A stretch of 64,000 nt of DNA from Promethearchaeota archaeon (GCA_016840085.1 JAEOTA010000051.1:68548-132547), one strand, 5' to 3'; positions 14,088 through 40,910 are shown, numbered from the stretch's first letter. The notes: a model not told the origin generated them from the sequence alone. Made by a program: numbers and translations.

Positions 14088-14088
14088 A

Positions 14089-17607: not shown

Positions 17608-18201
17608 TTAATTAACAGCCGAAAGTAATTTGTATTTGTAATATTTACCTAAAATTAATCTTAAGATGTCTTCAAAACATTCTAGGATTCCATTTCCGTT
17701 GATTGCTGCTGTATATCTTGAATCCACGTTTTTATATTTATGATACTCAATTTCTCTTAAAAATTCGGTAGGATTAAATTTATCCAATAAATCTTGTTTA
17801 TTAAAAGCCAGTATAATCGGTATATCCTCAATAGATTCTTGGAAATATGTGAAAAGTTCTTTCCATGATGCTAAATTTCGACTATAAACTTCTTTATGAG
17901 AATCCAATACAAATATTATACCATCAACTGCCCGTAAAGTAATTGGTCTGGTTATAATATAAAAATCTTGACCGGTTGTAGTATAAATATGAATTTTAAG
18001 GCGCCATTCTTCATTTTGAAATGTAACGGTTCCATAATCAAAAAATAACGTCCTATTTACAGTACTCTCGATGCTATATAGATCCTCCCCCTTACCTAAA
18101 TGGGAAAATAACGCCTTGATTGATGTCGTCTTGCCTGAAAAAGCGGGTCCAAAATATACAATTTTTATGCTAATAGTCTTATCAACAAAATCTACTATCA
18201 T
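17608..18201 (-). CDS. MglA-like small GTPase
   Basis: KIVYFGPAFSGKTT, RTLFFDY, YTTTGQ, VDGIIFVLDS and NKQD motifs. Confidence 0.9.
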   Translation of the reverse strand: MIVDFVDKTISIKIVYFGPAFSGKTTSIKALFSHLGKGEDLYSIESTVNRTLFFDYGTVTFQNEEWRLKIHIYTTTGQDFYIITRPITLRAVDGIIFVLDSHKEVYSRNLASWKELFTYFQESIEDIPIILAFNKQDLLDKFNPTEFLREIEYHKYKNVDSRYTAAINGNGILECFEDILRLILGKYYKYKLLSAVN

Positions 18202-23158: not shown

Positions 23159-23236
23159 TTACATTATACTTTTGATTTTTTTGGCTAATTCCTTCGCTTC
23201 CTCATCGACGCTCTCGAGAATCTCAAAAATTTTCTC
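23159..23236 (-). pseudogene. Shortest 3' remnant of the anchor gene (copy 4)
   Basis: Translates EKIFEILESVDEEAKELAKKIKSIM*, matching the C-terminus of 38800-39141. Confidence 0.85.
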
Positions 23237-23275
23237 AATTATTTCAATAAGAAACTATTTCTATTATAAGATAAT

Positions 23276-23669
23276 TTATTTGATTTTGTGGGAGAGTTTA
23301 TGGACGATCCACCATTTATCATTGATTTTCATCAGGTTAAAAGTAATCAATATATCCAACTTCTTCACATTCAATTCTTAGTTTTGCCGCGGCATTATTC
23401 CCCGTTACATCAATATAATAAAATTCAGTAGTCCAAGCTAAGTTTTTGTTCACTTTTTCTGGATCATACCAAGATAAATACTCTGCTTTATCAACTATTC
23501 TCAGTTGTTTATTTTCATCAAATAGAAAAAACTTCCATTCATCATGCAAAATACTTTTATAAAGTTCTGGATCGCTTCTAACGTGACCCTCATGGTAATA
23601 ATCCATAATAGCCTTCTTTATAGAATTTTTTTCAGTTTCTTCAATATTTTCGGGTTGATTGCCTGACAT
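23276..23669 (-). pseudogene. NTF2-like (Lumazine_bd_2-like) protein, frameshifted near its 3' end
   Basis: YIDYF* continues as NLMKINDKWWIVHKLSHKIK* after removing one base at 23339-23342. Confidence 0.75.
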
Positions 23670-23826
23670 TATTTTTCATTTAATTTTATGATTTATCATT
23701 TTAAACAGGATTAATGATAAAAAAATAAAATAGTTTTTTTAACTTTTCTTACTAATTTTTTCATTTTTTTTTTTTAAAATGGAATATTATATATAACTAA
23801 ATATTAAACTGAAATAAATTATTATA

Positions 23827-24672
23827 ATGACAATTAAAAATAGGAAAAACACACACACATCTTCAAAAGATTTACGACCCATCGAAATAAGCACTAAACG
23901 AGCAAATAGATATAAGAAGGGCATGAAATTATCTAAAATTCCTGGAATAAAATATATTTTTAAACATATTTTTAGTCCAAAAAACTCTACTGGATCGCCA
24001 ATTCCAATAAATAAGTCTTTAGGAACTTATGAGAATCAAGTATTACCATTAGTGGTAACGGAATATTTCATTAAAAAAGCAAGCCATATTGTATTAATGG
24101 ATTGTCCCTGTCGAAAAGCTAATAAATGTGAAGATCACGACTATAAATTAGGATGCACTTGGTTGGGTAAGGCTGCTGCAAGGATTGAAGTCAAAAATTT
24201 TTCTGGTGCTCATCACGCTACTGTAGAGGAAGCACTAGAGCGGGAACGCTTGGCTTATGAAAATGGATTAGTACCTCATTTAGGTAGGCTCAGAGCAGAT
24301 TCTTGGAAATATGGTGTTCTACCTGATACTGGACATTTCATGAGTTTATGTCATTGCTGTTCCTGTTGTTGTATCCTAAGTACTATTAAATATGGTACAT
24401 CTGCAATAAGAAAAATCCTAAAGAGAATGGAGGGTGTAACCGTTAATATAAATAGGGATATATGTGTCGGCTGTGGAGAATGCTTTAAAGTCTGTATATA
24501 TGATGCAATGAAAATGATTGATGAAAAAGCAAAGATCGATCAAGATGCTTGCTTAGGTTGTGGACGCTGTGCTAGCACATGTCCAAATCAAGCTATCACT
24601 ATAATGATTGATGATTATAGCCGAATTGATGAATTGATTGCTCATATTGAAACTTATGTTGATGTTACCTAA
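23827..24672 (+). CDS. 4Fe-4S dicluster-binding protein
   Basis: CPCR, CHCCSCCC, CVGCGECFKVC and CLGCGRCASTCP motifs. Confidence 0.88.
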   Translation: MTIKNRKNTHTSSKDLRPIEISTKRANRYKKGMKLSKIPGIKYIFKHIFSPKNSTGSPIPINKSLGTYENQVLPLVVTEYFIKKASHIVLMDCPCRKANKCEDHDYKLGCTWLGKAAARIEVKNFSGAHHATVEEALERERLAYENGLVPHLGRLRADSWKYGVLPDTGHFMSLCHCCSCCCILSTIKYGTSAIRKILKRMEGVTVNINRDICVGCGECFKVCIYDAMKMIDEKAKIDQDACLGCGRCASTCPNQAITIMIDDYSRIDELIAHIETYVDVT

Positions 24673-24712
24673 TGTTAATATTGTTTTATTTTATTATTTA
24701 ATAATCTGTTAA

Positions 24713-24823
24713 AACTTAGAGATTTCCCAAAAACTAGACTTTTACTCTCACTACTAAAAATAAGTCTAAAATCCACTCGAGTTAATTACGAATTTGAAAA
24801 TCTTCTCAAAAATTTTAAAGAAA
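24713..24823 (+). repeat. Diverged direct repeat (gene-end remnant X), copy A
   Basis: Ungapped hand alignment to 31087-31197, roughly three-quarters identical. Confidence 0.7.
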
Positions 24824-24941
24824 GAAAAGATCCAAAAGTATATGCAGGTTGGGCGGAAACTCCTTTCTATTTAAAAAACGGATGGAAAATTGCCCGAAAG
24901 TATATTGTTTTTGAAAAACAACTGTAAAAACTAGAATTGAA
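24821..24941 (+). repeat. 121-bp direct duplicate of the GNAT gene 3' end (21752-21872)
   Basis: 4 mismatches in 121 bp by hand alignment; includes the stop codon and downstream bases. Confidence 0.92.
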
Positions 24942-25046
24942 CCTGGATCAAAGTTAATGGATTCAAATTCTCCTACGAACCTCTTTCACGAGAGCTTTTA
25001 TTAGATCTGCTTTAATAGAAAAATAAAAGAGATAATAAAAAAACAT

Positions 25047-26390
25047 TTATTTTAATTTTTTCTTTAAATATATTGCTGTTATCACACAAATAACACTAAT
25101 TAACAGTAATAAGGGATAACCAGGAATTACTGGTTCTCTTTTTTTAATGGTGTTTTCAACCCCATATTTCACCAAAACCATATCACCATTCTCCATCCCA
25201 AAACTATATGTGGTTCCCGAAAGATAAATGTTTTCTGACGAATCCACTGCCACTCCATTGCCCAATTCCTTAGAAGTCCCCCCCCATATGCGACTCCATT
25301 GCTGCACACCCGAGCTGCTATATTTCACCAAAACCATATCTGGTTCTCCTACATCGGAGTTTGTTGTATATCCTGTAATATAAATATCATCAGATGAACT
25401 CACAGTAACCCCATGACTTTCATCAGAATAAATTCCACCCCATATACGACTCCATTGCAGCCCACCAGAACTGTTATATTTCACCAGCACCATATCATTT
25501 TCTCCCACCACAACACTGTATGTATCTCCCGCAAGATAAACATTGTCAAACGAATCTATTGCCACTCCGAAACCAACATCCCAATCACGCCCTCCCCATA
25601 TACGACTCCATTGCAGGTCACCAGAGCTGTTATATTTCACCAGAACCATATCTTCAACCCACGGCTCGTAAAAAACTGTTTCTCCCGCAAGATAAACATT
25701 GTCTGACGAATCTACTGCCACCCCATGGCCCTCATCATATCCGCCGAAGCCCCATGTCTTATTCCATTGCAGCCCACCAGAACTGTTATATTTCAAAAGA
25801 ATTACATCCTTACCTCCTACACCGTAACTCGATGTGTATCCTGTAACATAGACATTGTCTGATGAATCTACTGCCACTCCAAACGCAATATCATTTTCAG
25901 TTCCACCCCATGTACGATTCCATTGTTGTACACCAGAACTGTCATATTTTATCAAAACCAGATCAGTTCCTCCTGCCCCGAAACTATATGTGGTTCCCGA
26001 AAGATAAATGTTTTCTGACGAATCCACTGCCACTCCATGCCCATTATCATGATAACTTCCACCCCATGTACGATTCCATTGCTGTACACCAGAACTGTTA
26101 TATTTTACCAGAACCAGATCAGTTCCTCCTGCTCCGAAACCATATGCTTCTCCCGCAAGATATACATTATCTAATGAATCCACAGCAATTCCATTGCCAC
26201 GATCCTCAAAACGCCCACCCCATGTGCGATACCAATCAACTTCAAAAGAATTACTGGCAGATGAAGAGCTTCTAATATTCCTGCTAGCCTTAGCATCTTG
26301 TTCATTAAAAAGTGTGTTTGTCTCTTGGAATATGAGACTAAAATACAAGATAGAAATAAATACTATTATAGAATATTTTTTTTTTTTCAT
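25047..26390 (-). CDS. SBBP-repeat seven-bladed beta-propeller surface protein with Loki-CTERM-like anchor
   Basis: Signal peptide, seven 52-aa WxRTWGG...GVAVDSSDNVY repeats, C-terminal IPGY-TM-basic tail. Confidence 0.88.
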   Translation of the reverse strand: MKKKKYSIIVFISILYFSLIFQETNTLFNEQDAKASRNIRSSSSASNSFEVDWYRTWGGRFEDRGNGIAVDSLDNVYLAGEAYGFGAGGTDLVLVKYNSSGVQQWNRTWGGSYHDNGHGVAVDSSENIYLSGTTYSFGAGGTDLVLIKYDSSGVQQWNRTWGGTENDIAFGVAVDSSDNVYVTGYTSSYGVGGKDVILLKYNSSGGLQWNKTWGFGGYDEGHGVAVDSSDNVYLAGETVFYEPWVEDMVLVKYNSSGDLQWSRIWGGRDWDVGFGVAIDSFDNVYLAGDTYSVVVGENDMVLVKYNSSGGLQWSRIWGGIYSDESHGVTVSSSDDIYITGYTTNSDVGEPDMVLVKYSSSGVQQWSRIWGGTSKELGNGVAVDSSENIYLSGTTYSFGMENGDMVLVKYGVENTIKKREPVIPGYPLLLLISVICVITAIYLKKKLK

Positions 26391-26647
26391 TTTTTTTCTT
26401 TAATGTATATTTTTGGATTTAAAAATTTGTAATTAAATTTCAGATATAAACTTTATACTAAAATACAATATACGTAAAAGAACAACCATTTCCTTTATAT
26501 CCATACTAATAATCTACAACTCTATTCTGCAATAAATTATTTTAAATACATTTGCAGAACTTGATAAAAAAATATAATAAAATAATTGAGCAAGCCGGAA
26601 AAAATTTAATTCAACACACCTTATAATGAGATTAGTCATGTCCCAAA

Positions 26648-26815
26648 TTATAGTAATTGTTCCTTAATTTTTTTGGCTAATTCCTTCGCTTCCTCATCGA
26701 CGCTTTCGAGAATCTTAAATAATTCCTCAGGAGTAACAAGTAACGCCGCATCAAGCAGCTTTTGAAGTTCAATGACCATGTTAATCCATTTCTTCTTCTG
26801 AAGATTGAAAATTAC
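26648..26815 (-). pseudogene. 3' remnant of the anchor gene (copy 3)
   Basis: VIFNLQKKKWINMVIELQKLLDAALLVTPEELFKILESVDEEAKELAKKIKEQLL* aligns to the C-terminal half of 38800-39141. Confidence 0.9.
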
Positions 26816-26831
26816 TTAATAAAATTCTTTA

Positions 26832-29800
26832 TTATTCTCTTAAAATCTCAGTGTATAATTTATTGATAAAAATGTTGAATTCTCCACTAGAAAATTTGAC
26901 ATTTAGTAAAGGAGTTAATAAAGCAGGTACAAAGCTCTCATTTTCATAAACAGGAACAATTTTTAATAAGCCTTTTTTTCGGAGTTGGAATGCCGCTTGC
27001 CATTCATCATTCACTGCTTTAGAGTTTAAAGCATTTTCAGAACAGAAAAGCACAAATACATTACATTCCTTAAGAGTTCTCTCCATATATTCAACGATAT
27101 TCTCTCCACTATCTACTTCCCAATACAATACTTTATTGATTTCAGGATATTTTTCTAAACTCTTTACAACCTTAGGTAATTGAAAATACTCTGAATCCAA
27201 AGTAGAATAACTTAAAAAAACATTAAACTCCTTAAATATTTCAGGTATAAATTCTAGACTAGGTACTACTTCGAATACAACTGATTTAGTGCTCGAGAAA
27301 TACTCTGCAATTATCTCTTTATTATGAATCATCTTCTGAATTACACCCTCAATTAACTTTTCATCTTTAATGCCACTGCTCTCAATTATTTCAGCAAGTT
27401 GTAATCGCGAAAATTTCTTCCCTAAATTTATAATTGTCTTTTTGAGTGAATTAATAAAATTCAATTCTGATTTTTTACATTCTTTTATTTTTTCTTCAAG
27501 ATCGAGTACTAAGTCCTCTATTTCATGAACCTGAGCCTTCTCTTTAAGCTCAATTAAATTCATTAATGCAGTCTCGAACTTGTTTTCAAGAATTATATCA
27601 CCAATTTCTAACATTTTTTTCTGTATTTTATTCTGGAGTTTAAGCTTCTTTTTATTTATTTTCTCTTTCTTTTCTTCTTCAGTTATAGATGCTTTTTTCC
27701 TCCATGCTATTACTCCTGTTACAATAACAACAGTAATTATGCTAACAACAATAATGATAATAATAATATCAATTGGCAAACCTTTTCTTGGTAAGGTAAC
27801 GCCTATGTTTTCATTAAATTGATTACCTGCACAATCAATTTCTTCGTATGCTTTATCATTGTATCGTAAATCATTCTTAGATATAATGTTATAGTTAGAT
27901 TCATTAAGAAATATTCCAATTTGATTATAACTGACTGTATTATTTGTTATATTATTATAATGACTATTATCTAAATGAATCCCGTAAAGATTATTATGAT
28001 TAATTGTCTCTTCATTATTTTCTATGTCAATATTATCGCTATTAATAAGTACAATCCCACTCCTCCCATTTTGATTAATTAAATTCTCTGTTATATCGAT
28101 GTCTTGACAATTAACTAAAGTAATTCCATTAGCATTATTATAGGAACAATTATTATTGTTAATTACACCATTCGAAACACTATTCAATTTAATACTTGCG
28201 TCATAAATACCATTACTGGCTTCATAAAACATAGAATTTCTAATGATAAAATATGCATCAGAATTTTGAATCTCAATACAATTGCTAGAATCTTGTCCAC
28301 CTATTTTAATATGTTCAATAATATATGGATCACCTGAAATTCCAGAACCAGAACACCAGCCCTTTAAGACTGCTTCTGCCCATGTATAATCTCCATTCCC
28401 TAAATCATCAATAATTATCGGATCTAAAGTCCAATAGTCATACTCCTTTTCAATAGACACAGATTGGAAACCAATCTTTCCGAATGTATCATTCGCACAG
28501 AATGTGAGAATTATTGGACCAATTCCTTTTTTATCCCATTCTCTTTGATCAATTACACCTGTAAACTCGTTAAAAGTAATATTAGTTAAACCATTGTCTA
28601 TCGTATACCACATAGAATCTAAATTAGATTCATTAATGGAAATGTTAAAACTTGGTGCTATAATTCCAAAGATTTCATTAAAACTTGGAGAATTAATCAT
28701 AATATAGGGATTCAAGTCGTCTCCGTCATCCCAAATTGGTAAATAATCCTTACTCTTTGCGGTTCCACTTATAGGATATGGAAAATCCCCAATCCCATCA
28801 TCATTAGAATCTCTTGCTTCAGAGCCTAATTCTGTGTAGTTGTCCCAATAATTTCCGATTAAACTATTATTCCAATTATTATTACTTCCGTCGTCTTGAA
28901 CATGTAATCCATTTCCAATAAAATAATTATTATAAAATAAATTATACCTATTAGCAACATTCGTTATATATACGCCTTTCTGAGAATTTCCGGTTACATT
29001 ATTATTATAAAATGTGTTATTTCCATTTCCATAATCTTCTGTTTTATCTATTTCAATTCCATTAGCTTTATTATTATAAATTTCATTTTTTAAGAATATC
29101 GAATCATTTACATTATCTTCAAAATAGATTCCATTTAAATCATTATTTTTTGCCTTATTCCTCGAAACAGAGAGATTTTTATTTCTAAAAAATTCAAAAC
29201 CATTATCCTTGTTGAACATAACTTTATTCTCTGTAATATTACTTTGTTCAATCCCGCATAAATAAATTCCAACATGAGTATTATTAAAAGCTGTGTTGTT
29301 AATGATATTACTGAAATCAAGGTTGTAGATAAATATTCCATAAGAATTATTATTCAATATATTATTTTTAATAGTGATATTATCGTAAAGTCCTGTTCCC
29401 CAATTATCTAAATAAATACCATGCCCTTTGTTCATTGAACAATTATTATTAAGTATTAATCCATTAGTCACATTAAATAGTGTGAATCCTGCACCATACA
29501 TCCCAATTCCCGAATTATAGTTAGTACAATTCTCAACTTCAAAATATTCTCTTGTATTTTCAATATAAATGCAACTTCCTGAATCACCAGCATCTATTTT
29601 CAAATTTTTAATAAGATATGGATCTGAGAGTTTTCCTAAACCAGTACACCACCACTTTACTAAAGCTGTCTGAGACCAATTTAAACCATTTATTCCATTA
29701 CCATCAATGTGTATTTTTTCCCCATTATGGATAGGATTTTCGAAAATAGGTTTAGTGTCATTAGCTTTTGCGGTTCCTGGAATAGTATAATTAATATCAC

Positions 29801-30917
29801 CAATACCATCAAAAGGTGTTGTATCTACTCCTCCTCCATTAGTATAATCATCCCAAAAATTTCCAATAATGCCATTATCCCATTTATTATCATTTCCATT
29901 GTCATTAGCGTGTGCAATAATATTTCCAAAAAATGAATTATTATAGAGTATATTATCTTTACATTCAACACTCGATAGAGACACACCTGTTTGGGTATTA
30001 TTATGCACGATATTACCTGTAAATGTAGTGTTAAAAGTATCTTCAAAGCTAGCACCAATTGTATTGTTAAATAAGAAATTTCCTACCATTGTATTGTTAT
30101 TATTTGAGTATGACGGGGTAAAATCATCGGAATTAATACCTATATTACTATTTGTTGCATCATTTAGTAATATCCTATTATAACTAGCACTAGAAACGTA
30201 AATTCCATCATCTTCATTGTTAGTTAGGGTATTTCCGAAAACAGTGTTGTTATTACATTTATAACCTATTATAATCCCATATCCCTTATGATGAAGATTA
30301 TTTACATAATTTCCAATAATAGAATTATTTTCTGAAGAATCTTCTAGCCAAATTCCCGCATGAGGACCTGAAAACTTGTCATTTTTAACGTAATTTTCTA
30401 CAATAGTGTTATTATAACTTGATTGAAGATGAATCCCTAAATGATTATTCGAACAATTGTTATTAATTATTTGAGAATTATTAACGTTCTCTAAATCAAT
30501 TCCTCCTAACTGATAATTATAATCAGTTTGATTAAAAAATATACAATTTTTAATGGTAAAGGGAACATTAGAGTCTCGAACTGTAAGGCAACTATATAAC
30601 CCATTTCCGTCTATCGTGACATTTTCGATAATATAAGGATCTCCCCAAGTTCCAGCTCCCTTACACCAATCTTCTTGAACTGCTGTTGCCCATGTATAAT
30701 CCCCGGTACCATCATTATCATCAATCACAAATGGGTTAAGAATCCAAGATGCTGATTCACTTAGATTCTCTTTAGTTTGATTAATTGAATTGGGATATCT
30801 AATATATTCATCATCAAATTTAAAATTTTGAAAGAACAAAAATATGATAAAAACTAATAGGATTAATGATATCACTTTTTTTCTTTTAATTCTAATAGCT
30901 TGGGATAAAATACTCAT
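26832..30917 (-). CDS. Membrane receptor-like protein: NosD/right-handed beta-helix ectodomain, TM helix, PCI-like winged helix, TIR domain
   Basis: Three WCxGxG...DPYII blocks each followed by NN-GI beta-helix repeats; TM IIIIIIVVSIITVVIVTGVIAW; FNVFLSYS...VFVLFCSENALNSKAVNDEW TIR motif. Confidence 0.88.
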   Translation of the reverse strand: MSILSQAIRIKRKKVISLILLVFIIFLFFQNFKFDDEYIRYPNSINQTKENLSESASWILNPFVIDDNDGTGDYTWATAVQEDWCKGAGTWGDPYIIENVTIDGNGLYSCLTVRDSNVPFTIKNCIFFNQTDYNYQLGGIDLENVNNSQIINNNCSNNHLGIHLQSSYNNTIVENYVKNDKFSGPHAGIWLEDSSENNSIIGNYVNNLHHKGYGIIIGYKCNNNTVFGNTLTNNEDDGIYVSSASYNRILLNDATNSNIGINSDDFTPSYSNNNNTMVGNFLFNNTIGASFEDTFNTTFTGNIVHNNTQTGVSLSSVECKDNILYNNSFFGNIIAHANDNGNDNKWDNGIIGNFWDDYTNGGGVDTTPFDGIGDINYTIPGTAKANDTKPIFENPIHNGEKIHIDGNGINGLNWSQTALVKWWCTGLGKLSDPYLIKNLKIDAGDSGSCIYIENTREYFEVENCTNYNSGIGMYGAGFTLFNVTNGLILNNNCSMNKGHGIYLDNWGTGLYDNITIKNNILNNNSYGIFIYNLDFSNIINNTAFNNTHVGIYLCGIEQSNITENKVMFNKDNGFEFFRNKNLSVSRNKAKNNDLNGIYFEDNVNDSIFLKNEIYNNKANGIEIDKTEDYGNGNNTFYNNNVTGNSQKGVYITNVANRYNLFYNNYFIGNGLHVQDDGSNNNWNNSLIGNYWDNYTELGSEARDSNDDGIGDFPYPISGTAKSKDYLPIWDDGDDLNPYIMINSPSFNEIFGIIAPSFNISINESNLDSMWYTIDNGLTNITFNEFTGVIDQREWDKKGIGPIILTFCANDTFGKIGFQSVSIEKEYDYWTLDPIIIDDLGNGDYTWAEAVLKGWCSGSGISGDPYIIEHIKIGGQDSSNCIEIQNSDAYFIIRNSMFYEASNGIYDASIKLNSVSNGVINNNNCSYNNANGITLVNCQDIDITENLINQNGRSGIVLINSDNIDIENNEETINHNNLYGIHLDNSHYNNITNNTVSYNQIGIFLNESNYNIISKNDLRYNDKAYEEIDCAGNQFNENIGVTLPRKGLPIDIIIIIIVVSIITVVIVTGVIAWRKKASITEEEKKEKINKKKLKLQNKIQKKMLEIGDIILENKFETALMNLIELKEKAQVHEIEDLVLDLEEKIKECKKSELNFINSLKKTIINLGKKFSRLQLAEIIESSGIKDEKLIEGVIQKMIHNKEIIAEYFSSTKSVVFEVVPSLEFIPEIFKEFNVFLSYSTLDSEYFQLPKVVKSLEKYPEINKVLYWEVDSGENIVEYMERTLKECNVFVLFCSENALNSKAVNDEWQAAFQLRKKGLLKIVPVYENESFVPALLTPLLNVKFSSGEFNIFINKLYTEILRE

Positions 30918-31086
30918 TTTACACTTTTCAATTGTTTAAATTAGTAAGGTGTATCTACCTCTATTAAATCATATATATGTCAATTGAATATATAAATATA
31001 AATTTCACAAATTTGTCAATCTAATTGGGAATCAATTTAATTCAATATGCTTACGCTAATATTAGAGAAATATTATTAGCAGAAAC

Positions 31087-31197
31087 AACTTGGAGATTTC
31101 CTAAAAAATGAACTTCTAATCCCACTATTAAGAAAAAACTTAAAACCCGAACCAGATAATTACGAATTCAAAAATCCTATAATAAAATTTAAAGAAA
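31087..31197 (+). repeat. Diverged direct repeat (gene-end remnant X), copy B
   Basis: Aligns to 24713-24823; reads LGDFLKNELLIPLLRKNLKPEPDNYEFKN. Confidence 0.7.
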
Positions 31198-31216
31198 AAT
31201 GTAAAAAAAACCCAGA

Positions 31217-31524
31217 TTATAATAAACCTTTTATCTTTTTCGCTAACTCCTGAGCATCCGCATCGGAACTCTCAAGAATCTTAAATAACTCCTTAGGTGC
31301 GACAATTAATGCCGCATCAATGAGTTTCTGAAGTCCAATTACCGTGTTAATCCGCTCATTCTTCTGAAGGTGGAAAATCACACTCCCCAATTGATTTTTG
31401 AGCAAACCACGCTCAGATTCTAACGCCACACGTAACAGCGCGGGACATACCTCCTTTATTGTCTCTCTACTTACATGCTGGGCATGTTCATACATCTCCG
31501 CCCTTTGAGCCTCTGTTAGCCCTA
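31217..31524 (-). pseudogene. 5'-truncated copy of the anchor gene (copy 2)
   Basis: Homology to 38800-39141 starts at codon 13 (GLTE) and runs to the stop; the first 12 codons and upstream region are absent. Confidence 0.88.
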
Positions 31525-31619
31525 AATCGCCGAAGTTTATAGATTTGGATTTGTTAAGAATAATGATTTTTCAATTTGTTATAGGAACGGAAATGTAAAA
31601 AAAAAATTTTAAAAAGATC

Positions 31620-32138
31620 TTATATTGCCCATTTAACCCATTTTCTATAAGTATTTTCTGCCTTATTCATAGCTTTTGTTAATTTTTTTGTCTTTTTCTG
31701 ATTTTCCTTATCTTCTCTATCACTAATTGAATCAATTTCTTTTTTTAAGGCATTTGTGACAAGTTGAGCCATAAACGATACAAAAGCTCTCTTTCTTGAA
31801 AGCTTTTTAATTGGATCCTTAAATTCACGATGACTTGTCACTTCTAACATACACCCACCAGCACGTATTATTCCGGTCATCCCAGGTACTGAAACATCCT
31901 TCATAGATATATAAACTATTTTTATTGTCTTATCTTTTTGGGGCACATTAAACGCTATTCCATTAGGAGTCACAAGAAAATGTGTAAACCAGTACTTAAC
32001 TTTTACTTTACCAAATGTTAAAGTGGGTGTTCTTATTTCGCATCTACCATATCCACTATAGATTACTTGTTCATCTTCAGGAATAATAGAAGTAAGATTA
32101 CTAAAATCTATGGGAACATACATGTTTGGATTACTCAT
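31620..32138 (-). CDS. Hypothetical protein, possibly PH-like fold
   Basis: 172-aa ORF with GGTGA SD; IPEDEQVIYS...HFLVTPNGI motif resembles 34484-34897. Confidence 0.7.
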   Translation of the reverse strand: MSNPNMYVPIDFSNLTSIIPEDEQVIYSGYGRCEIRTPTLTFGKVKVKYWFTHFLVTPNGIAFNVPQKDKTIKIVYISMKDVSVPGMTGIIRAGGCMLEVTSHREFKDPIKKLSRKRAFVSFMAQLVTNALKKEIDSISDREDKENQKKTKKLTKAMNKAENTYRKWVKWAI

Positions 32139-32502
32139 AACATCACCTTATTTTTTATTTATTTTATATTTTAAAATTATTAGTAGAATTCTATTTTCTT
32201 CTCGAAGGAGTGAAATTTTGTCTAGTAATAGAGTTATAATACATCTTATATAAATATAAAAGATCCTGTGTTTCACAACGGAAAAAAGATTAAGTAGTAA
32301 TTTATTAGATTACGTAGTTATTTATTTTTTTTATTTTTATAGGGTAATTTGTTAGAAAAGTTTAAGATATGAAAGAAGAAAGGATCTTTTTTCTGCAGTA
32401 TATCTGGTTGAAATTGAGATATAATTAACCTTTATTTGTAATCTTTATATATAATCTAAATTAATATTTATTTGAAAAAAAGACAAAAATATATGATTTA
32501 TT

Positions 32503-34092
32503 ATGAAAGAAATTTTTTCAAGAAAGATTATTATTTTCATTTTGTTGGCAGGCTTCTTTTTGATTTTGATATCTATTACTTTAATAACAGTAAATAGCAA
32601 TTTAAAAATTAATGCACAGAACTTTAATGAAAATAACTCTATTAATTTGGAGAATTTCGATAAATTGCAATGTTCAGACTCTGCGGGTCTTTATCATGAT
32701 GATCATGCAGAACTGCATGGTTATGCTGATCAATATGTTACTTGGAGTTTTTCAACCGTCCCTTCTCAAATTATTAATGTATGGGCGATGGATGCATTTC
32801 AATATTCTTTATGGATTGCAGGACAAAGTGCATCGGGATATCTCCTTTCAACTGACTCTAGTGATACTGGAACCTTTAATGTCCCCGGAGGTAATACTTG
32901 GTATATTATTTTTTGGAATGATGAAATTGGTAGTGAATATACAGTTGTGACTTATAATGCAAATTTTGTAGGTGATAGTCGCCCTCCAGCAATAGAGATA
33001 ATAATACCTTCGTCATCATCTAATTATCAAACTGGTTCTGACCACATTATAGAGTGGTCAACTCAAGGATCAGTTGGGAATCTTAAAATTGAACTATTTA
33101 AAGGTAGTTCATTATATACAACAATCCATTCTAGTACTGCCAATGATGGTCAAGAGACATGGATAGTCCCTGGAACTTGCCCTGAAGCGTCTGATTATAG
33201 AATAAAAATTACAGATACTTCAGATCCAAATGTATATGATTATAGTTCTTATTTTACTATAATTGAAGTAAAATCAATAACTATTTTAGAACCCATAAAT
33301 ACTTCTATAGTTGTTCCAAAGACAAATCAAACAATTCTTTGGGAAAGTACAGGCTCAATTGATGAGGTAAAAATTGAACTTTATAAAGGAACTGAACTAT
33401 TAAAAGAACTTTCATCTAAAACTGAAAATGATGGTTCATTTTCATGGGTTCCATTATATTATGAAACGGATGGATACAGTTGGAATGTAATTCCTAGGGG
33501 AACGGATTATAGGATTAAAATAAAGGATGTTTACTCTAGTGTAAACTGTTTTAGTGAATATTTTGAAATTACAAATGTAAAATCTCTAACTGTATTTGAA
33601 CCTAATAGTTCTTCATCCTATAAACATGGTGAAATAATGACGATCAAATGGGAGACAGATACACCATGTGAAACTCTTGATATAAAAGTATATCATAAAC
33701 CTCAAGGTAGTTCTGATGCTGATAAGGTGTCAACTATTCCTTCAGTTCCAAATATTGGATATTATAATTGGACTATCCCCATTGATTTACCTCATGGTAA
33801 TTATTATCTTGTGATAGAAGCAACGGATAACAGTGTCCTTGAATTTAGTGAACATTTTACAATACAGTCTTCTTCCAGTGATATTAGTATTGGATATGAC
33901 CTTGTGTTTGTTATCATAGTTATATCGTTGATTTCTATAATCATAATTATTAAAAAGTCGAATATAAAAATTAAACTAAAATTCTCGAATAAATTCAAAG
34001 ATTTAGTTATTCATACAAAATTCGATAACATGATGAGATATAATCATATTGTAAATTATATTCTTTTGGGTGCTAATACTGAAGATTCCTGA
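32503..34092 (+). CDS. Ser/Thr-rich surface protein with tandem Ig-like (Kre9/GPI-anchored-like) domains and a C-terminal TM anchor
   Basis: N-terminal TM; three IxW...IELxKG...NDG...W...YRIKI repeats; IGY-TM-KK tail. Confidence 0.8.
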   Translation: MKEIFSRKIIIFILLAGFFLILISITLITVNSNLKINAQNFNENNSINLENFDKLQCSDSAGLYHDDHAELHGYADQYVTWSFSTVPSQIINVWAMDAFQYSLWIAGQSASGYLLSTDSSDTGTFNVPGGNTWYIIFWNDEIGSEYTVVTYNANFVGDSRPPAIEIIIPSSSSNYQTGSDHIIEWSTQGSVGNLKIELFKGSSLYTTIHSSTANDGQETWIVPGTCPEASDYRIKITDTSDPNVYDYSSYFTIIEVKSITILEPINTSIVVPKTNQTILWESTGSIDEVKIELYKGTELLKELSSKTENDGSFSWVPLYYETDGYSWNVIPRGTDYRIKIKDVYSSVNCFSEYFEITNVKSLTVFEPNSSSSYKHGEIMTIKWETDTPCETLDIKVYHKPQGSSDADKVSTIPSVPNIGYYNWTIPIDLPHGNYYLVIEATDNSVLEFSEHFTIQSSSSDISIGYDLVFVIIVISLISIIIIIKKSNIKIKLKFSNKFKDLVIHTKFDNMMRYNHIVNYILLGANTEDS

Positions 34093-34897
34093 TTCAAAAG
34101 ATGAAAAGTTTTATTTCAAATTAGGTAAGGAATTGTTTGATAAACGTAAATTCAAGGAATCAATTAAAAAATTTGACAAAGCACTAAGATTAAATCAAAA
34201 TCCTGGGCTTTGCTACTATTATAAAGGTCTAGCTTTGATTATGATTTCTAAATATGAGAATTCAATTCCTCTTTTTGATAACGCATTAGAATTAATTCCA
34301 TTGGATCCAGAAATTCTTATTGGAAAAAGCATTGCATTAATGAATTTAAATAAGTATGAAGAATCGATAGAATTATGTTATCAAGCATTAAAAATACAAC
34401 CAAATAAATATTAGCTTGAAGCTGCACAAATAAATGAATATTTTAAAAAATTTGAAAAGGCATTAGATTGTATTAAAAAGTATTTGATTTATAATCCGAA
34501 TAATGATTGGACAGACCATATTAAACATGCTATAAGAGATGGAATAAAGTTTGGAAATAATTATTATATACCTATAACAAGATCACTTTTGTTATCTAGT
34601 GTTCCCTTTGAAGATACTATTATTTATACTACTCGAATTGAAATCAAAACATTAAATCGAAATATACTCACTGACGCTATAATTACAAATAATGGACTAA
34701 TTACAATTGTTCCGTATTCAGTAAATAATTATATAGGTTGGGATAATGTTTCTTTTAGAATTAATAATTCATTTAAATTTTCAGGATTCAATTGTAAATT
34801 GCATAGGGTTCCACATTATGAATCAAAGAAGCAATTTAAGACACGTTCTAAAAACTTTAAAGCAACAATTTATCAATTGCGAAATAAATTTTTTTAA
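34070..34897 (+). pseudogene. TPR protein with C-terminal domain, interrupted by one in-frame TAG (34412-34414)
   Basis: ORFs 34070 and 34484 share a frame; read-through gives KY*LEAAQINEYFKKFEKALDCIKKYLIYNPNN, a further TPR. Confidence 0.8.
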
Positions 34898-34957
34898 TTA
34901 AAATATATACCAAAAATTGTTAGATATGAATTAAAGAATTATTTGGTGAAATAGGAT

Positions 34958-35678
34958 TTGTCAAATAAGAATATTTATAGACGAAAAATTTTAAGTATGT
35001 TAAAATGTATTAGGTGTGGTTCTGTTAAAAAATTATATGCATATACACACAAAGAAACAATGATAACTTCTTCCAAAAGTACTCGACGCTATTATTCTCA
35101 AGAAAGTATGACTTGGACTCAAGAATTTCCAGTATGCTCTAAATGTCTTGAAGAATTTAAGATTTGGAAAAAAAAAACAAGTTTATAATGTGATTTTTGG
35201 GCTTCTTTTTATTCCTCTTTGGATATTTATAATATTGAATATAATTAATTTTATGGCTGAATCTCTCTCAGACACTCCTAATTATTTCCTAAGAATCGGT
35301 GTAGCTTTAATTGAAATTTTACCTTTTGTAATATTATTAATTATAACTAATAATTTCTTTAAAAAATATAAAAAGAAAAAAGAAAATTTATCTAATTATA
35401 TAGATATTAAATTTGGATATCCTAAAATTAGACCTGAGAACTCAGAAACATGGTATCCTTTTAAAGAATGGGCAGAATCAGTAATAAAATTAAGAGTAGC
35501 AGAAGGTACTATTGATCCGAGTAACATATTAAAAGTTTTAAATAAAACACAACCAAGTAAACCTAAATTAGATACCTATGAAGATAAGAATAGAAATTAT
35601 AAAAAATGCCCGAAGTGCGGTAATATTGTGAATTTAACTACAAGTAAAATCTGTGAAGTTTGTGGATATGAATTTTAG
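34958..35678 (+). pseudogene. Zn-ribbon / 2-TM / Zn-ribbon protein split by a frameshift in an A10 run
   Basis: Removing one A from 35168-35177 fuses the two ORFs (EEFKIWKKKQVYNVIF); CxxC pairs at both ends. Confidence 0.78.
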
Positions 35679-36129
35679 AGGTTGTCAATCTCCTTAGTAT
35701 TCTGATCCCAGTGGTTCTGACCGCCAATTTTGGGCTGATATTGAAGGTTATTGGACTAATATGGATCAACAGCATACATAGACTCATTCCATGCGACCTA
35801 GTGTACCATCCAGCTCTGCCAAGAAATACTTTGATACTGTTGAACACAACCTAAATCAAGCAGTATATTATTGCGCTACTGTTTTAAATTATATCTTGAA
35901 CATGGCAGGATATACTGATTGCGATTGTGGTTTAAGTTCAGGACAGAATCCTAATCCACCATTACCAGATGGCGTAAAAGATAAAACGGCTGTAGCTGAA
36001 GGACTTAAATCATCATTGAAAGAATTTTAAGGGCTGTTTTTCTTTAATTTTATGGGTCTCATGGCCACCGCAATTACGTTTGCTCTGCTTAACAAGGTTG
36101 AGGTCATAGAAGAGTTTATCCCGTTATAA
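35671..36129 (+). pseudogene. Decayed 3' part of a membrane-anchored protein gene
   Basis: Single frame with TAG (35695), TAG (35779) and TAA (36028), ending in a hydrophobic segment GLFFFNFMGLMATAITFALL. Confidence 0.65.
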
Positions 36130-36182
36130 AAAAGTTCTAAAGGTTTTTCATTTTTTTTATCCCACTTTTTGGTTTAAATTTT

Positions 36183-36569
36183 CTAATCCATAGATTCTTT
36201 AATGCGATTACCCGTGAGATATAAGTCCATTAAATTTGGTAAAGTTTCGAGCCCTTTAATCTCTGAAATGGGATTACCTCCATGATTTCCATCTCCAAAC
36301 CATAGAAACTCTAAATTCCCAAGATTATCTAAAACTTCGATTTCAGAAATATGATTTCCACTGAGATTTAAGAACTTCAAACTTGTAAGATTTTCAAATT
36401 TATGAATACAATTACCCTTAAGATGAAAAATATCAACATTCTTTAATTTTCCTAACCCTTTAATTTCCGAAAGCTTATTGGAAGTAAGGTCAGTGAGGTC
36501 TACTCTCTTATCATGAACAAAAAATTTTTTTCCATGAATAACAACATATTCCGCTAAATTTTCCTCCAT
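36183..36569 (-). CDS. Short SDS22-like leucine-rich repeat protein (possibly truncated)
   Basis: LNLSGNHISEIEVLDNL and ISEIKGLETLPNL repeats. Confidence 0.75.
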   Translation of the reverse strand: MEENLAEYVVIHGKKFFVHDKRVDLTDLTSNKLSEIKGLGKLKNVDIFHLKGNCIHKFENLTSLKFLNLSGNHISEIEVLDNLGNLEFLWFGDGNHGGNPISEIKGLETLPNLMDLYLTGNRIKESMD

Positions 36570-36723
36570 TATCCCAAAGAAATCTATATCATTTTTTACT
36601 TTATAAATTTAATGACCGTGATTACTTAGAAAAAGGCTTTAGGAACTTTAACTGTCTTTAGATTTAAATACAATTATAATATTAATTATATTAAAAAAGA
36701 CAAAAAATATTATAATCAACCTA

Positions 36724-38742
36724 ATGGAAGAATTTTTTAGAATTAAGCAGCAAAAGAAAGTAAGAAATTGTTGGAATTGCGGCGAACCAGTTAAAATCGA
36801 AGATTTGACAAGAAATTTGAGAGTTAGGGATATTAAAATCTTTGGGGAACAGATGTGGTTAGATGAAGAATCAGCAATCTATTGCAAAGAATGTTATAAA
36901 AAATTGAAGAATTATAAGGGTATTAATGGTAAGGAAATAAAAATATTAGATATTCTTCAAAAATCAATAGGAAGAGAAATAGAAATTCGCTCAAAATTAA
37001 GAGGATATGAAGATAATGGTTTTGTAGCTGAAAAAAACCATGTCACAAAATTAGAAATTAATAATGTCCATTTAACCGTTATCCCTAAGGAGATTTTCTC
37101 ACTTCCTTTCCTTGACACTCTTATTATATCCATTGATTGTGTAGAAAAGCTGCAAGAATCTATTGAAATGCTACAATTACTTAAAAATTTAAAATTATTT
37201 GCTAAACAATTCAATATTTTACCTGAAATGATTTGTACTTTGAAATATCTTGAATCACTTGAAATCTTGTCAAATAAATTAACTCATCTTCCAAATTCTT
37301 TTGGTAATTTGAGATTATTAAAGAATTTAATTTTAAGATGTAAATTAGATACTCTTCCTGACTCATTTGGAAATCTTAAATCATTAAAAGTATTGAATTT
37401 ACTTAATAATAATTTAGAGGAGCTTCCAGAAACTTTTGGAGATCTTAAATTACTAATCGATTTAAATCTACAAAATAATTATTTGAAAAAGCTTCCAGAC
37501 TCTTTTGGGGATCTTAAATCATTAATAAAATTAAATTTACAAAGTAATCTTATAAAGGAGCTTCCAGAATCATTTGGAGATCTTCAATCATTAGTAGATT
37601 TGAATTTACGAAGTAATAGTCTGAAAGAGCTGCCTGACTCTTTTGGAAATCTAAAAAATTTAGAAAGATTAAATTTAGAGAGGAATCATTTAAGAACTTT
37701 ACCAAAATTATTTGGGAATTTAAAATCTCTTGTTGAATTAAATCTTTCCGAGACTCCATTAGAAAAGCTTCCAGAATCTTTTGGTTTATTAAATGCACTG
37801 AAAGAATTAGGATTAGGAAATTGTGAAAAAATTTCGTTTCCTAAATCTTTTGGAAAACTCAAATCCATTGAAACTATAGGCTTATCTCGTATAGGTGAGA
37901 GTGGACTTAAAGCATTAATAAAAGTTAAGCCCTTAAAGAAACTTTATTTATCTAATATAACAGTTGATACGCTTCCAGAAAATTTTTCGAAATTAGAATA
38001 CCTTGAAGAATTAGAAATAGGAGGACTACTAAAAATCCTTCCTGAGTCATTTGGTTATCTTCGGTCGCTCAAAAAACTTAGGCTTTATAAGTTACCATTA
38101 AATTGCTTACCAGAATCTTTTTCCAAATTACATAACCTTGATACTCTATATATTCTCGCCTGCAAGTTAAAGAAACTTCCGAATACAATTGGTAATCTTA
38201 AAAAACTTAAAATTTTAGACTTAAACCAAAATGAACTGACTCTTCTTCCAGAATCAGTTGGAGATCTAGAATCACTGGTAGATTTAAATTTATCAAATAA
38301 TAATATAAATCAACTCCCATTTTCACTAAAAAATCTTCAATCCCTCATGAGTCTAAATTTATCAGGTAATAGGCTATCTAGCATCCCAGAAAGTGTAAAA
38401 AATCTTAAAAAATTAGCGTATTTATACTTCTATAATAAAAAAGCATCGAATATAGAGATCTTAAAAAATTTGAAAAACTTAAAGGGATTATACATTAGCG
38501 GGATTGAACTTCATGAAATAACTATAAAAGATATTCCTAATACCATAGAGAATTTAGTAATTGGAGCAACTGACGCAAATAACCATGAAGAATTTAGAAA
38601 GCAGTTAGGTTTTTTATTTGGTAAGAATTCTTTTAAAGAAATAACCTTAAAAGATATTCCTGAAAAGCTGAAATTTATACAAATCGGATCATATGAAATT
38701 GAGACAGAAACATTAAAAGCTTTAATTTTATATGAGCTTTAA
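36724..38742 (+). CDS. Leucine-rich repeat protein with N-terminal Zn ribbon
   Basis: CWNC...CKEC followed by many 23-aa LPESFGxLKSLxxLNLxxN repeats. Confidence 0.92.
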   Translation: MEEFFRIKQQKKVRNCWNCGEPVKIEDLTRNLRVRDIKIFGEQMWLDEESAIYCKECYKKLKNYKGINGKEIKILDILQKSIGREIEIRSKLRGYEDNGFVAEKNHVTKLEINNVHLTVIPKEIFSLPFLDTLIISIDCVEKLQESIEMLQLLKNLKLFAKQFNILPEMICTLKYLESLEILSNKLTHLPNSFGNLRLLKNLILRCKLDTLPDSFGNLKSLKVLNLLNNNLEELPETFGDLKLLIDLNLQNNYLKKLPDSFGDLKSLIKLNLQSNLIKELPESFGDLQSLVDLNLRSNSLKELPDSFGNLKNLERLNLERNHLRTLPKLFGNLKSLVELNLSETPLEKLPESFGLLNALKELGLGNCEKISFPKSFGKLKSIETIGLSRIGESGLKALIKVKPLKKLYLSNITVDTLPENFSKLEYLEELEIGGLLKILPESFGYLRSLKKLRLYKLPLNCLPESFSKLHNLDTLYILACKLKKLPNTIGNLKKLKILDLNQNELTLLPESVGDLESLVDLNLSNNNINQLPFSLKNLQSLMSLNLSGNRLSSIPESVKNLKKLAYLYFYNKKASNIEILKNLKNLKGLYISGIELHEITIKDIPNTIENLVIGATDANNHEEFRKQLGFLFGKNSFKEITLKDIPEKLKFIQIGSYEIETETLKALILYEL

Positions 38743-38799
38743 ATGAACTATGATGAAATCAAATAACTTTCAAGATATAAGAGAAAACTATGTAAACAA

Positions 38800-39141
38800 C
38801 TATAATATACTTTTTATTTTTCTCGCTAACTCCTGAGCATCCGCATCCGAACTCTCAAGAATCTTGAACAGTTCCTCAGGGGCGACTATCAACGCCGCAT
38901 CAATGAGCTTCTGAAGTCCAATTACCGTATTGATTCTTTCATTCTTCTGGAGGTGGAAAATCACATTCCCTAACTGATTCTTTAGCAACCCACGCTCAGA
39001 ATCCAACGCCACACGCAAAAGCGCAGGACACACCTCATCTAAGGTCTCCCTCCCTACATGCCGCGCGAATTCATACATCTCCGCCCTCTGAGTCTCTGTT
39101 AGCCCTACAACCTTTTCCTCTATTTTGGTTAATGGTTCCAT
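38800..39141 (-). CDS. Small alpha-helical hypothetical protein; intact anchor gene of the repeat series
   Basis: 113-aa ORF with purine-rich upstream; GC-rich (30 of 60 bases at 38821-38880); three partial copies downstream. Confidence 0.85.
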   Translation of the reverse strand: MEPLTKIEEKVVGLTETQRAEMYEFARHVGRETLDEVCPALLRVALDSERGLLKNQLGNVIFHLQKNERINTVIGLQKLIDAALIVAPEELFKILESSDADAQELARKIKSIL

Positions 39142-39841
39142 TTTCCTTTCTCACATCCCACTTTTTTGATTTTTTTCATTACTTTTTTGATTTTTTTTTA
39201 CCAATTCTAATAATTATTACCTTCATATTTAAATGAATCGGGCAAAAAATCGTACTTAAAAGTGCGAAATCCGTCAAAAAATCCATAATATAACTTTTCG
39301 ATTCTAGGTAATGACTGAAAAAGTGAAAAAGGGATTCTATTACTAATTTTTGAAATTTAGATCTTGATTTGTAAGTTAAGATTACAGGACGAAAAGACAA
39401 TATTGACAGAAAATTATGGGAATTCAGTGGGGTGAGTCATTTTTCCGGAACTTTTTTGTATTAAACGATCGAAATCAGTAATATTTCCCTCATTTATTTT
39501 TGGGTCTCATACAAAAGATAATGAATATCTATTCAAACCAGTAAAAAACACCAGATAGAATCGCCAAAGCCCTTATTGGTGACCGCTTTCCTCAAAAAAC
39601 TCAAGGTCAATACACAAAATGAAAAATTATTATCAATTTTCATTACTAGAAACCACCATTTTTTCTCATTTTATATTTAAAGACTTGATCTAATTTATTA
39701 TTATAATCACGCATTTTTATCGGAATGATGCTAATTGATGATCGTGTCACTACAACATAATGATCGAAAAACATCATAATTTATATACAATTATTAATTA
39801 TAGTTATTTGAAAAACTAAAAGTAAATGTGAGGGTTTAAGA

Positions 39842-40111
39842 ATGGTCATGAAAAATGCTGAAGAAAAAGTAGAAAACGTGATGGGGTATTATAAAGACAT
39901 TCGAGAATGCTTAACGGGGTTATATGATATTATCAATATTAATTTTAATGAAAAAGATATCTATCATCAAGCAGGTATGGATAATTTAATAACACTTCAT
40001 AATAGTATTTTGGAAATATTAAGAACTTCATTTACTCCTCGTGAGATTAGAATTCGATTACGAGAGTTAGAATTTGACGAAAAGGAAGCAGAAGAAGTCT
40101 TTCCCCTATAA
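39842..40111 (+). CDS. Hypothetical protein
   Basis: 89-aa ORF with GAGG upstream. Confidence 0.7.
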   Translation: MVMKNAEEKVENVMGYYKDIRECLTGLYDIININFNEKDIYHQAGMDNLITLHNSILEILRTSFTPREIRIRLRELEFDEKEAEEVFPL

Positions 40112-40237: not shown

Positions 40238-40903
40238 ATGACTGTAATAACTACAAAAAAGCCTTTTGAAGAAGTCCTAGAGGCTTTAAAAAAGGTCAAA
40301 AAGATTGGAATAGTCTCATGTGGTAGTTGCGCGGCTTTGTGTCAAACTGGTGGAACTGAAGGGGCAAAGGAGATGGCAGAAAAGTTGGAGAAAGAGGGTT
40401 TTGAGATAGTGTTCTCCATTGTTCCAGAAGAAGTTTGTGATCAAAGAGTAATGAAACAGGATTTTAGGAAAATTGAGGAGGATTTACATAAAATTGATGC
40501 GATTTTAAGCTTAAGCTGTGGAGTGGGTATAGCTAGCCTGAATGAAGTGTTAGCAAAAAAATTTCCTCATCTTCCTGTGTTTATTTCTAATAATACAGAA
40601 TTTATAGGGATGACCGAAAGAATTGGTCGTTTCTATATGAGATGTCGTGGATGCGGTCAATGTTTATTAAATGAGACAGGAGGAATTTGTCCAGTCACAA
40701 CGTGTGCTAAATCACTTATGAATGGTCCATGTGGCGGAATGGTTGATGGTAAATGTGAAGTTGGGAACTATGAAAAAGATTGTGGTTGGGTTCTTATATA
40801 TAACCGCTTAAAAGAATTAGGTAGGTTAGATTTATTTAGTATATTGAGGGATCCAATTGATTGGAGTGAATCGGGTCATCAACGAGAAGTAGTGTGGAGG
40901 TAG
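40238..40903 (+). CDS. metV: MetV paralog
   Basis: CRGCGQCLLNETGGICPVTTCAKSLMNGPCGG...KCEV signature. Confidence 0.9.
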   Translation: MTVITTKKPFEEVLEALKKVKKIGIVSCGSCAALCQTGGTEGAKEMAEKLEKEGFEIVFSIVPEEVCDQRVMKQDFRKIEEDLHKIDAILSLSCGVGIASLNEVLAKKFPHLPVFISNNTEFIGMTERIGRFYMRCRGCGQCLLNETGGICPVTTCAKSLMNGPCGGMVDGKCEVGNYEKDCGWVLIYNRLKELGRLDLFSILRDPIDWSESGHQREVVWR

Positions 40904-40910
40904 AGCTAGA

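Follow-up and report, generated by a model that had tools for sequence, protein, structure and literature searches.

How does a conserved gene come to be followed by a series of its own tails, each lying behind a different set of genes? The question is raised by a 64,000-nucleotide stretch of DNA from a Promethearchaeota archaeon (GCA_016840085.1, JAEOTA010000051.1:68548-132547), which we analyzed at its full length and refer to as the window; positions are counted from its first letter. The host genome is a metagenome-assembled genome of 4.68 Mb in 89 contigs, with 7.6% contamination. At 38800-39141, on the minus strand, lies an intact gene that we call the anchor (113 amino acids, with an all-helical product). 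Downstream of it and on the same strand are three partial copies that keep its 3' end. A preliminary description of the window had interpreted this as an integron-like, age-ordered array that was built by repeated single-crossover integration. We think it likely that the array records successive insertion-duplication events, each of which left a scar and needed no integrase but only homologous recombination and one illegitimate join.

A four-way alignment and a search with nhmmer (using a DNA profile of 25 intact anchor orthologues) both agree with the preliminary description in finding one intact gene and three co-oriented 3' copies. The positions also hold up, with small shifts: remnant 1 ends at 31525 and begins at codon 12, and remnant 3 ends at 23237. 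Remnant 1 (31217-31525, minus strand) corresponds to nucleotides (nt) 34-341 of the anchor, or codons 12-113. It is 87% identical at the amino acid level and its frame is open (nhmmer E = 1.5e-86). Remnant 2 (26648-26815, minus strand) corresponds to nt 178-341, or roughly codons 57-113, with 67% identity and one stop at its 5' edge (E = 2.1e-34). Remnant 3 (23159-23237, minus strand) retains nt ~262-341, which is the last ~26 codons (E = 2.4e-10), and is 88-91% identical to remnant 2. The repeated anchor fragments are 78-308 nt long and become shorter with distance from the intact gene (308, 168, and 79 nt).

In each copy, the alignment breaks off either at the stop codon or immediately after it. 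The 5' break points are all different, as had been noticed, and the pairing of alleles also stands: the two proximal copies encode SSDADAQELA and the two distal ones encode SVDEEAKELA. As claimed, the remnants begin shortly after the stops of minus-strand cargo genes (by our measurements, after 94, 16, and 99 nt). Remnant 1 is followed by a non-coding post-anchor sequence (31070-31216, minus strand) that was displaced along with it and that is repeated at about 24696-24828. Remnant 1 and the next 70 nt are collinear with the intact anchor and its downstream DNA in the sister genome G067 (83% identity over 379 nt, gene tail included), so remnant 1 is the displaced old tail. The possibility that the post-anchor repeat is a piece of coding sequence from a convergent GNAT gene was rejected because both copies have in-frame stops.

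Scars across the genus and across the genome

We searched 54 congeneric genomes for the anchor. A full-length copy is present in 37 of these, and none of the 37 has a second one. In at least 13 genomes, 3' remnants lie on the same contig and the same strand, downstream of the intact gene and behind different cargo; across all 54 genomes, no anchor remnant is upstream or inverted. The pattern that had been predicted (a single intact copy, variable cargo, and 3' remnants) is thus what the genus contains. In the genome under study, the copies of the anchor are confined to the array locus, with no others elsewhere, rather than being scattered like an insertion sequence (IS) or a miniature inverted-repeat transposable element (MITE). 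Nor is the cargo shared wholesale between relatives.

Scanning 25 anchor loci with the DNA profile identified remnants at 15 of them, nearly all of which end at the stop codon. The 5' ends of the remnants are at profile nt 34, 47, 137, 164, 169, 177, 178, 185, 206, 209, 220, 236, 257, 260, 264, 267, 297, 297, 298, and 305. In G041, the intact anchor is followed by four remnants that are 0.5-1.1 kb apart, each behind one ordinary gene (a gene of unknown function, a radical SAM gene, another gene of unknown function, and a MarR-GNAT gene). Remnant length falls with distance from the intact gene in G041 (136, 132, 45, and 37 nt) and in G046 (178 and 75 nt), but not in G001.

Two pieces of the anchor have other shapes. 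G001 has an internal fragment (nt 86-236, at 5877-6026 of the oriented locus L041), and G002 has a 5' fragment (nt 1-112, at 13690-13801 of L038) that is 10 kb downstream of the intact gene. Simple insertion-duplication at the 3' end does not explain either of them.

The same scar is found behind other genes. We compared the genome to itself and collected direct repeats of at least 60 nt that were 0.2-30 kb apart. In 24 pairs, the 3' end of an intact open reading frame (ORF) is repeated as a downstream fragment on the same strand. Other geometries were less frequent: 3' fragments upstream (5), 5' fragments upstream (7), and 5' fragments downstream (8, most of them artefacts). The inserts in the 24 pairs range from 0.56 to 16 kb and contain diverse genes, with no gene in common; two of the scarred genes carry two remnants each. 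Examples are at C73:649-5095, C82:74012-83735, C56:6038-9849, C85:91055-96294, and C69:69034-70109. In relatives, the corresponding site of the C69 locus is occupied by different cargo. We did not recover a clean empty site, as the C69 site is variable across the relatives and, for C5, the downstream flank is not beside the gene in G067.

Across these gene/remnant copies, the pooled proportion of synonymous differences (pS) is 0.44, and the ratio of the non-synonymous to the synonymous proportion (pN/pS) is 0.23. The remnant is AT-richer than the intact copy in 16 of 22 gene/remnant pairs. We found no motif that is common to the 22 duplicated segments, whose shared k-mers do not exceed the control level. 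Because 24 pairs carry the scar, it reflects a general habit of this genome and not a dedicated integron-like machine, and this part of the preliminary description is not supported. Similarly, the anchor is the most used of some twenty landing sites and not a special attachment (att) site.

Recombinases, alleles, and rival explanations

An intact target with displaced partial 3' copies is the classical signature of site-specific integration at tRNA genes, tmRNA genes, and some protein-coding genes. The array could accordingly be the product of serial integration by elements that used the 3' end of the anchor as their att site, with a recombinase that has since been lost or that the host supplies in trans. 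The stacking would be expected as well: in the tycheposons of Prochlorococcus, which accrete serially by site-specific integration, newer elements push older ones outward (bioRxiv 10.1101/2020.12.28.424599). The low ratio of non-synonymous to synonymous divergence (dN/dS) of the copies, given below, would be equally expected, and the clustering of remnant starts at nt 164-185 also favors a preferred site. We nevertheless consider this explanation improbable, given what surrounds the anchors.

We did not find a recombinase or transposase domain in any of the ORFs that we tested with Pfam across the window, which agrees with the preliminary description. In the genome as a whole, there are just two matches to PF00589, a XerA-like gene and a broken integrase, neither of which is on the contig of the array. 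Across the 54 genomes, the Phage_integrase hits are the XerA-like gene (~311-320 amino acids), which is on other contigs, and a few unrelated integrases. Resolvase-type serine recombinases are present in 5 of the 54 genomes but never on the contig with the anchor. Near the ~37 anchors there is no match to PF00589 or PF00239, so neither a tyrosine nor a serine recombinase, and the Pfam-annotated cargo of this locus and of six relatives contains no recombinase either. These negative results cover the known families; a recombinase of an unknown family might escape. The ORFs adjoining 19 junctions are mutually unrelated, except for one orthologous pair, and some cassettes are just 0.5-1.1 kb with a single metabolic or unknown gene.

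The site itself is also not what a site-specific enzyme would be expected to leave. The break points span about 270 nt (nt 34-305), and we found no attC-like hairpin in common when we folded the tails of the four copies as DNA, on both strands (z from -2.25 to +1.96). That there is no fixed att site, as the preliminary description had it, therefore stands. The roughly twenty other target genes lack a common motif. We also considered a tRNA or tmRNA gene as the target, and rejected this as the window contains neither.

Local tandem duplication would be simpler. A duplication that starts inside the anchor yields an intact gene, cargo, and a 3' fragment, and it could account for the repetition of the ~130-nt post-anchor sequence; divergence and differential loss of cargo would then have to do the rest. 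We consider this very unlikely. The cargo blocks have no genes in common, and the copies have not diverged in the way that silent local copies would. Between the intact anchor and remnant 1 there are 32.5 synonymous and 14.5 non-synonymous differences (pS = 0.48, dN/dS = 0.08), and the intact anchor and its orthologue in G067 give a similar dN/dS of 0.07. So, the copies diverged as working genes in separate lineages, which excludes local duplication followed by decay. The copies in the array are alleles from foreign lineages that were under purifying selection, and not local duplicates. The pooled pN/pS across the genome argues likewise.

The cargo also has its own history. At least one cargo gene has recently moved between species. 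The stretch at 23806-24677, which includes a Fer4 gene, is 94% identical in DNA sequence to the gene directly behind the intact anchor of G001; pS for this gene is 0.14, as compared to 0.58-0.73 for five core genes. Fer4 is thus far closer to the other species' copy than the core genes are, which is not expected from tandem duplication. In G067, the intact anchor is immediately followed by a counterpart (95% identity) of a second unit of this array (23219-23744), which contains an NTF2-like gene and the junction to remnant 3. For NTF2, pS versus G067 is 0.07 (background 0.13-0.26), which is compatible with vertical descent, and the sharing of this unit could reflect either common ancestry or transfer.

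The remnants lack a 5' end and a promoter, lie near the intact gene, and encode alternative C-terminal alleles, so they might be silent cassettes, analogous to pilS or vls, that vary the C terminus of the anchor by gene conversion. Conversion could also produce the mixed sites after nt 234 that are described below. However, the copies are kilobases apart and the cargo between them differs among species; the remnants decay (by stops, by shortening, and by the AT enrichment in 16 of 22 pairs); the tail of the anchor is under purifying rather than diversifying selection; and the same scars lie behind about twenty unrelated genes. We give this idea very little weight.

Finally, strain variants of the anchor locus could have been concatenated during assembly, and the contamination of this metagenome-assembled genome and the presence of the junctions of remnants 1 and 2 in this assembly only would fit with that, but an artefact is highly implausible. 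The array is inside a contig of over 130 kb, and the DNA on either side of it is syntenic in relatives. The copies are just 73-87% identical, which is too low for an assembler to confuse them. The same architecture is present in at least 13 genomes that were assembled independently, and the junction of NTF2 with remnant 3 is identical base for base in G067, which is a different assembly.

Proposed integrase-free recombination and its relation to known systems

Given the diverged alleles and the lack of recombinases near anchors, recombination via the 3' part of the anchor, with no integrase, is the best-supported mechanism. The anchor is a recombination hotspot. Relative to the sister genome G067 (L044:8484-8825), pS is 0.46 for the anchor, but just 0.26 for its 89-amino-acid partner gene and 0.13-0.20 for the adjacent MTHFR genes, and a high value for the anchor is expected if its sequence has been replaced repeatedly. 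At informative sites in nt 49-141, it is the intact copy that matches the allele of the sister genome (14:5), while in nt 153-213 it is remnant 1 (11:1). This switch is weakly consistent with a reciprocal crossover.

We propose that incoming DNA from a related lineage of Lokiarchaeia begins inside the anchor and runs into the donor's downstream genes. It would recombine with the resident anchor via the 3' part that they have in common, and its other end would be closed by an illegitimate join of the microhomology type. If the join came beforehand, it would yield a putative circle, whose entry would take a single crossover (Campbell type). If it came afterwards, one end would invade and the second end would be captured by microhomology. 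Alternatively, the second end might be closed by another homologous crossover, in a remnant that the donor already carried. In each case, the outcome would be an intact hybrid gene, new cargo, and an old tail that is displaced downstream, and repeated events would stack the cargo blocks, roughly with the newest first. These three routes are indistinguishable here. Hence, of the single-crossover integration in the preliminary description, the recombination via the 3' part of the anchor stands, but the single crossover cannot be separated from end capture or from a double crossover. More broadly, how recombination proceeded, in what form the DNA came in, and in which order the events took place are what we infer from the present arrangement.

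We did not find Ku in this genome, so illegitimate joins would be microhomology-mediated. Microhomology can be read at only two junctions, as the others have no known pre-insertion sequence. The first is in G067: behind the NTF2 unit, nt 262-282 of the anchor adjoin nt 172-334, with a microhomology of ATT at the join (ATT / AAGATT). We had considered that this nested remnant, [262-282][172-334], could only have arisen by loop-out and re-integration, but a simple deletion at a microhomology, between two older remnants, would account for it just as well. The second is an A/G-rich run in this array, where post-anchor-like DNA (24696-24828) abuts a remnant of another gene. This remnant (24817-24944, plus strand) repeats the final 128 nt of the GNAT gene (20914-21858, plus strand) and is 95% identical to them. 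The gene and its remnant are 3 kb apart and enclose remnant 3 of the anchor and the NTF2 and Fer4 genes. As it is the same scar on a convergent gene, DNA has also entered the island from the opposite side. With this remnant, and with a Fer4 gene that has no anchor remnant beside it, the array is not the simple age-ordered stack that had been described.

The shortening of remnants with distance probably reflects survivorship. Long and similar remnants would recombine with the intact gene and delete the DNA in between, so the old remnants that survive would be short and diverged. As for why this gene is used so often, the anchor is probably the hottest landing site because of its good conservation and of a GC content that is unusually high for an AT-rich genome, which provide usable homology between species. 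(The GC content of the anchor is ~43-46%, as compared to 29.5% for the genome; its tail is at 46%, while the median for gene tails across the genome is 29% and the 90th percentile is 37%.) It also borders variable DNA in every lineage, so almost any import that spans its tail brings in new genes.

Several observations weigh against this explanation. The clustering of remnant 5' ends at nt 164-185 is not predicted if fragment ends are purely random. All 20 of the junctions that we examined spare the neighboring cargo ORF. The Fer4 gene in block C has no adjoining anchor remnant. The patterns at the junctions are absent from metagenome contigs, and among genome contigs, only G067 matched (the NTF2/remnant 3 junction). 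The test for a single break between the intact copy and remnant 1 is weak (p = 0.037 by permutation for the best break), and the pattern of sites is mixed after nt 234. Also, there is 13-16% divergence between the alleles of donor and recipient, the longest identical run between the anchor alleles of different species has a median of just 15 nt, and the genome encodes MutS. In bacterial models, divergence between alleles, short identical runs, and MutS all strongly depress homologous recombination. Because MutS is present, we rejected a lack of mismatch repair as the cause of promiscuous recombination. That joins so strongly favor 3' ends and intergenic positions might be due to a lineage-specific factor, such as breaks linked to the termination of transcription, and not just to selection.

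One of the known processes that come closest is Campbell-type pop-in, in which circular DNA is inserted by a single homologous crossover, and which serves to target genes in both archaea and bacteria. It also leaves an intact and a truncated copy as direct repeats around the insert, which is what we see in the array and in the 24 pairs across the genome. The host's homologous recombination suffices, any fragment of a gene can be the arm (as with the 22 segments that lack a common motif), and the direct repeats permit later loop-out. Pop-in is mainly a laboratory tool or a means of plasmid integration, whereas here it would be a natural and recurrent form of gene gain between species. Furthermore, the lineages are 13-16% diverged, a gene can have up to four scars, and the circle is only putative.

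Phage 21 and e14 integrate into the 3' end of icd. Like these, and like tycheposons and the islands at tRNA and tmRNA genes, the anchor locus has an intact target, cargo, and partial 3' copies, and it is a hotspot for accessory genes. Those systems have integrases and a fixed att core of ~40 nt. In contrast, among the 54 genomes there is no integrase near the anchors, the break points are spread over 270 nt, and many protein-coding genes are targets.

Homology-facilitated illegitimate recombination was reportedly found in naturally transformable bacteria in 2002, by de Vries and Wackernagel and by Prudhomme et al. It likewise combines one homologous region with one illegitimate join at a microhomology and needs no recombinase; here, microhomology is seen at the two junctions where it could be read. 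It usually deletes recipient DNA beside the homologous region, without duplicating a tail, and it has been described for bacteria and is not known from archaea, whereas here the tail of the anchor is duplicated and the host is an archaeon. The term is used in PMC3410848.

Integrons resemble the array in having a platform gene and a series of small, unrelated, and promiscuously shared cassettes, with the newest nearest to the platform. Unlike an integron, the array has no IntI, attI, or folded attC; its cassettes are in both orientations and have their own upstream regions; and the "site" is the tail of whichever gene is used. Tentatively, we suggest that conserved gene tails might act as an emergent and enzyme-free counterpart of integrons, that is, as landing pads for accessory genes across the genus. 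Any cargo between a tail and a remnant has two arms of homology, so it could loop out, travel, and be spliced in elsewhere, and TIR, LRR, TPR, propeller, and redox genes might circulate in this way.

Integrase-poor hotspots of transfer, which recombination in the core genes on either side reportedly maintains (Oliveira et al. 2017, PMC5635113), and replacement flexible islands (PMC4033161) are similar to the anchor locus in that a variable island between core genes turns over by homologous recombination and not by the enzymes of mobile elements. In those systems, double crossovers in both flanks reportedly replace the cargo and leave no scar, whereas here the process is additive and each event leaves a displaced tail. 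The array is also unlike an IS, a MITE, or a transposon, as the copies of the anchor are not dispersed and there are no terminal inverted repeats bracketing the cargo blocks. In our search of the literature, we did not come across an account of such scars for Asgard or any other archaea.

How Asgard archaea gain and shuffle accessory genes is relevant to the way in which the archaeal ancestor of eukaryotes could have built up a large and mosaic repertoire. These genomes have few integrases or transposases, yet they have large variable regions, and the scars point to recombination between lineages that are 13-16% apart as a main route of gene gain. A readable scar makes gene flow measurable from sequence, as it reveals the import, the donor's allele, and a rough order of events. 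The scars are also a trap for annotation, with truncated "paralogues" being called as genes, and they mark sites that tolerate insertions, on which genetic tools for cultured Lokiarchaeia could be based.

Cargo, flanks, and the anchor protein

Pfam confirms the types of cargo that were described (LRR, TPR, and surface genes, a TIR protein, and SBBP, Fe-S, and NTF2 genes). Cargo genes are on both strands and have upstream spacers of their own (48-150 nt). Block A (31526-38799, both strands, 7.3 kb) contains an LRR gene (672 amino acids, plus strand), a second LRR gene (128 amino acids, minus strand), a 79-amino-acid gene, a zinc-ribbon gene (176 amino acids), a 137-amino-acid gene, a TPR gene (114 amino acids), a Kre9/Ig gene (529 amino acids), and a 172-amino-acid gene (minus strand). 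The smaller LRR gene and the 79-amino-acid gene recur in the anchor arrays of G006, G041, G047, and G049.

Block B (26816-31069, minus strand, 4.4 kb) has a single gene (26832-30917, minus strand), which encodes a beta-helix (NosD) and TIR protein of 1361 amino acids. NosD/beta-helix sequence is found in six stretches of this protein, and the TIR domain (PF13676, E = 4e-14) is at its C terminus. Block C (23238-26647, both strands, 3.4 kb) is a mosaic. Besides the post-anchor-like DNA and the GNAT remnant, it contains an SBBP propeller gene (25047-26390, minus strand), the 4Fe-4S (Fer4) gene (23827-24672, plus strand), and the lumazine-binding/NTF2-like gene (23337-23669, minus strand). Beyond remnant 3 is distal cargo that is specific to this genome (18202-23158), with an ArsR-type HTH gene, a 166-amino-acid gene, the GNAT gene, two methyltransferases, and an ACT-domain gene. 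None of these distal genes were found in the loci of relatives.

Both flanks of the variable region are syntenic in relatives. On the anchor side are the anchor, a 700-nt spacer, a divergent gene for an 89-amino-acid protein (39842-40111, plus strand), and an MTHFR gene pair; the spacer and the 89-amino-acid gene together (39142-40111, plus strand) are syntenic in all of the relatives that we examined. On the far side are a Ras/Arf-like small GTPase (17608-18201, minus strand), an AsnC regulator, and a second MTHFR pair. The distance from the stop of the anchor to the GTPase is 20.6 kb here and 2.9-10.9 kb in seven relatives. The two pairs of MTHFR with its C-terminal-domain partner (13389-15021 and 40238-41843) bracket the whole variable region and are paralogues, with ~40-50% amino acid identity.

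The 89-amino-acid partner gene has no remnant in this genome. In G008, a 3' fragment of it (L040 1656-1778; codons 47-87, 59% identity) is ~0.7 kb downstream of the intact copy, so this gene can also act as a landing pad.

The anchor protein has no match in Pfam, PHROG, NCBIfam, the ESM Atlas, a sequence-profile search of PDB, or a Foldseek search against PDB. Its AlphaFold model (pLDDT 86.9) has seven helices. With VIA-align, nearly all of the best structural matches are death-fold domains, with Z of 5-5.8 over helices 2-7, which is weak for a helical bundle; these include the DED of PEA-15 and of caspase-8, the CARD of MAVS and of Apaf-1, and the PYD of NLRP6. That the anchor may be a stand-alone death-fold-like Asgard protein, beside TIR and LRR cargo, is only a lead from this model.

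We also note that the spacer between the anchor and its partner gene (39142-39841) contains GATC 5 times (2 expected), TGATC 3 times (0.6 expected), and TGAYYG 4 times (0.6 expected). Elsewhere in the window, at 54317-56275 on the plus strand, is an Eco57I-type restriction-modification methylase with a TaqI-like specificity domain.

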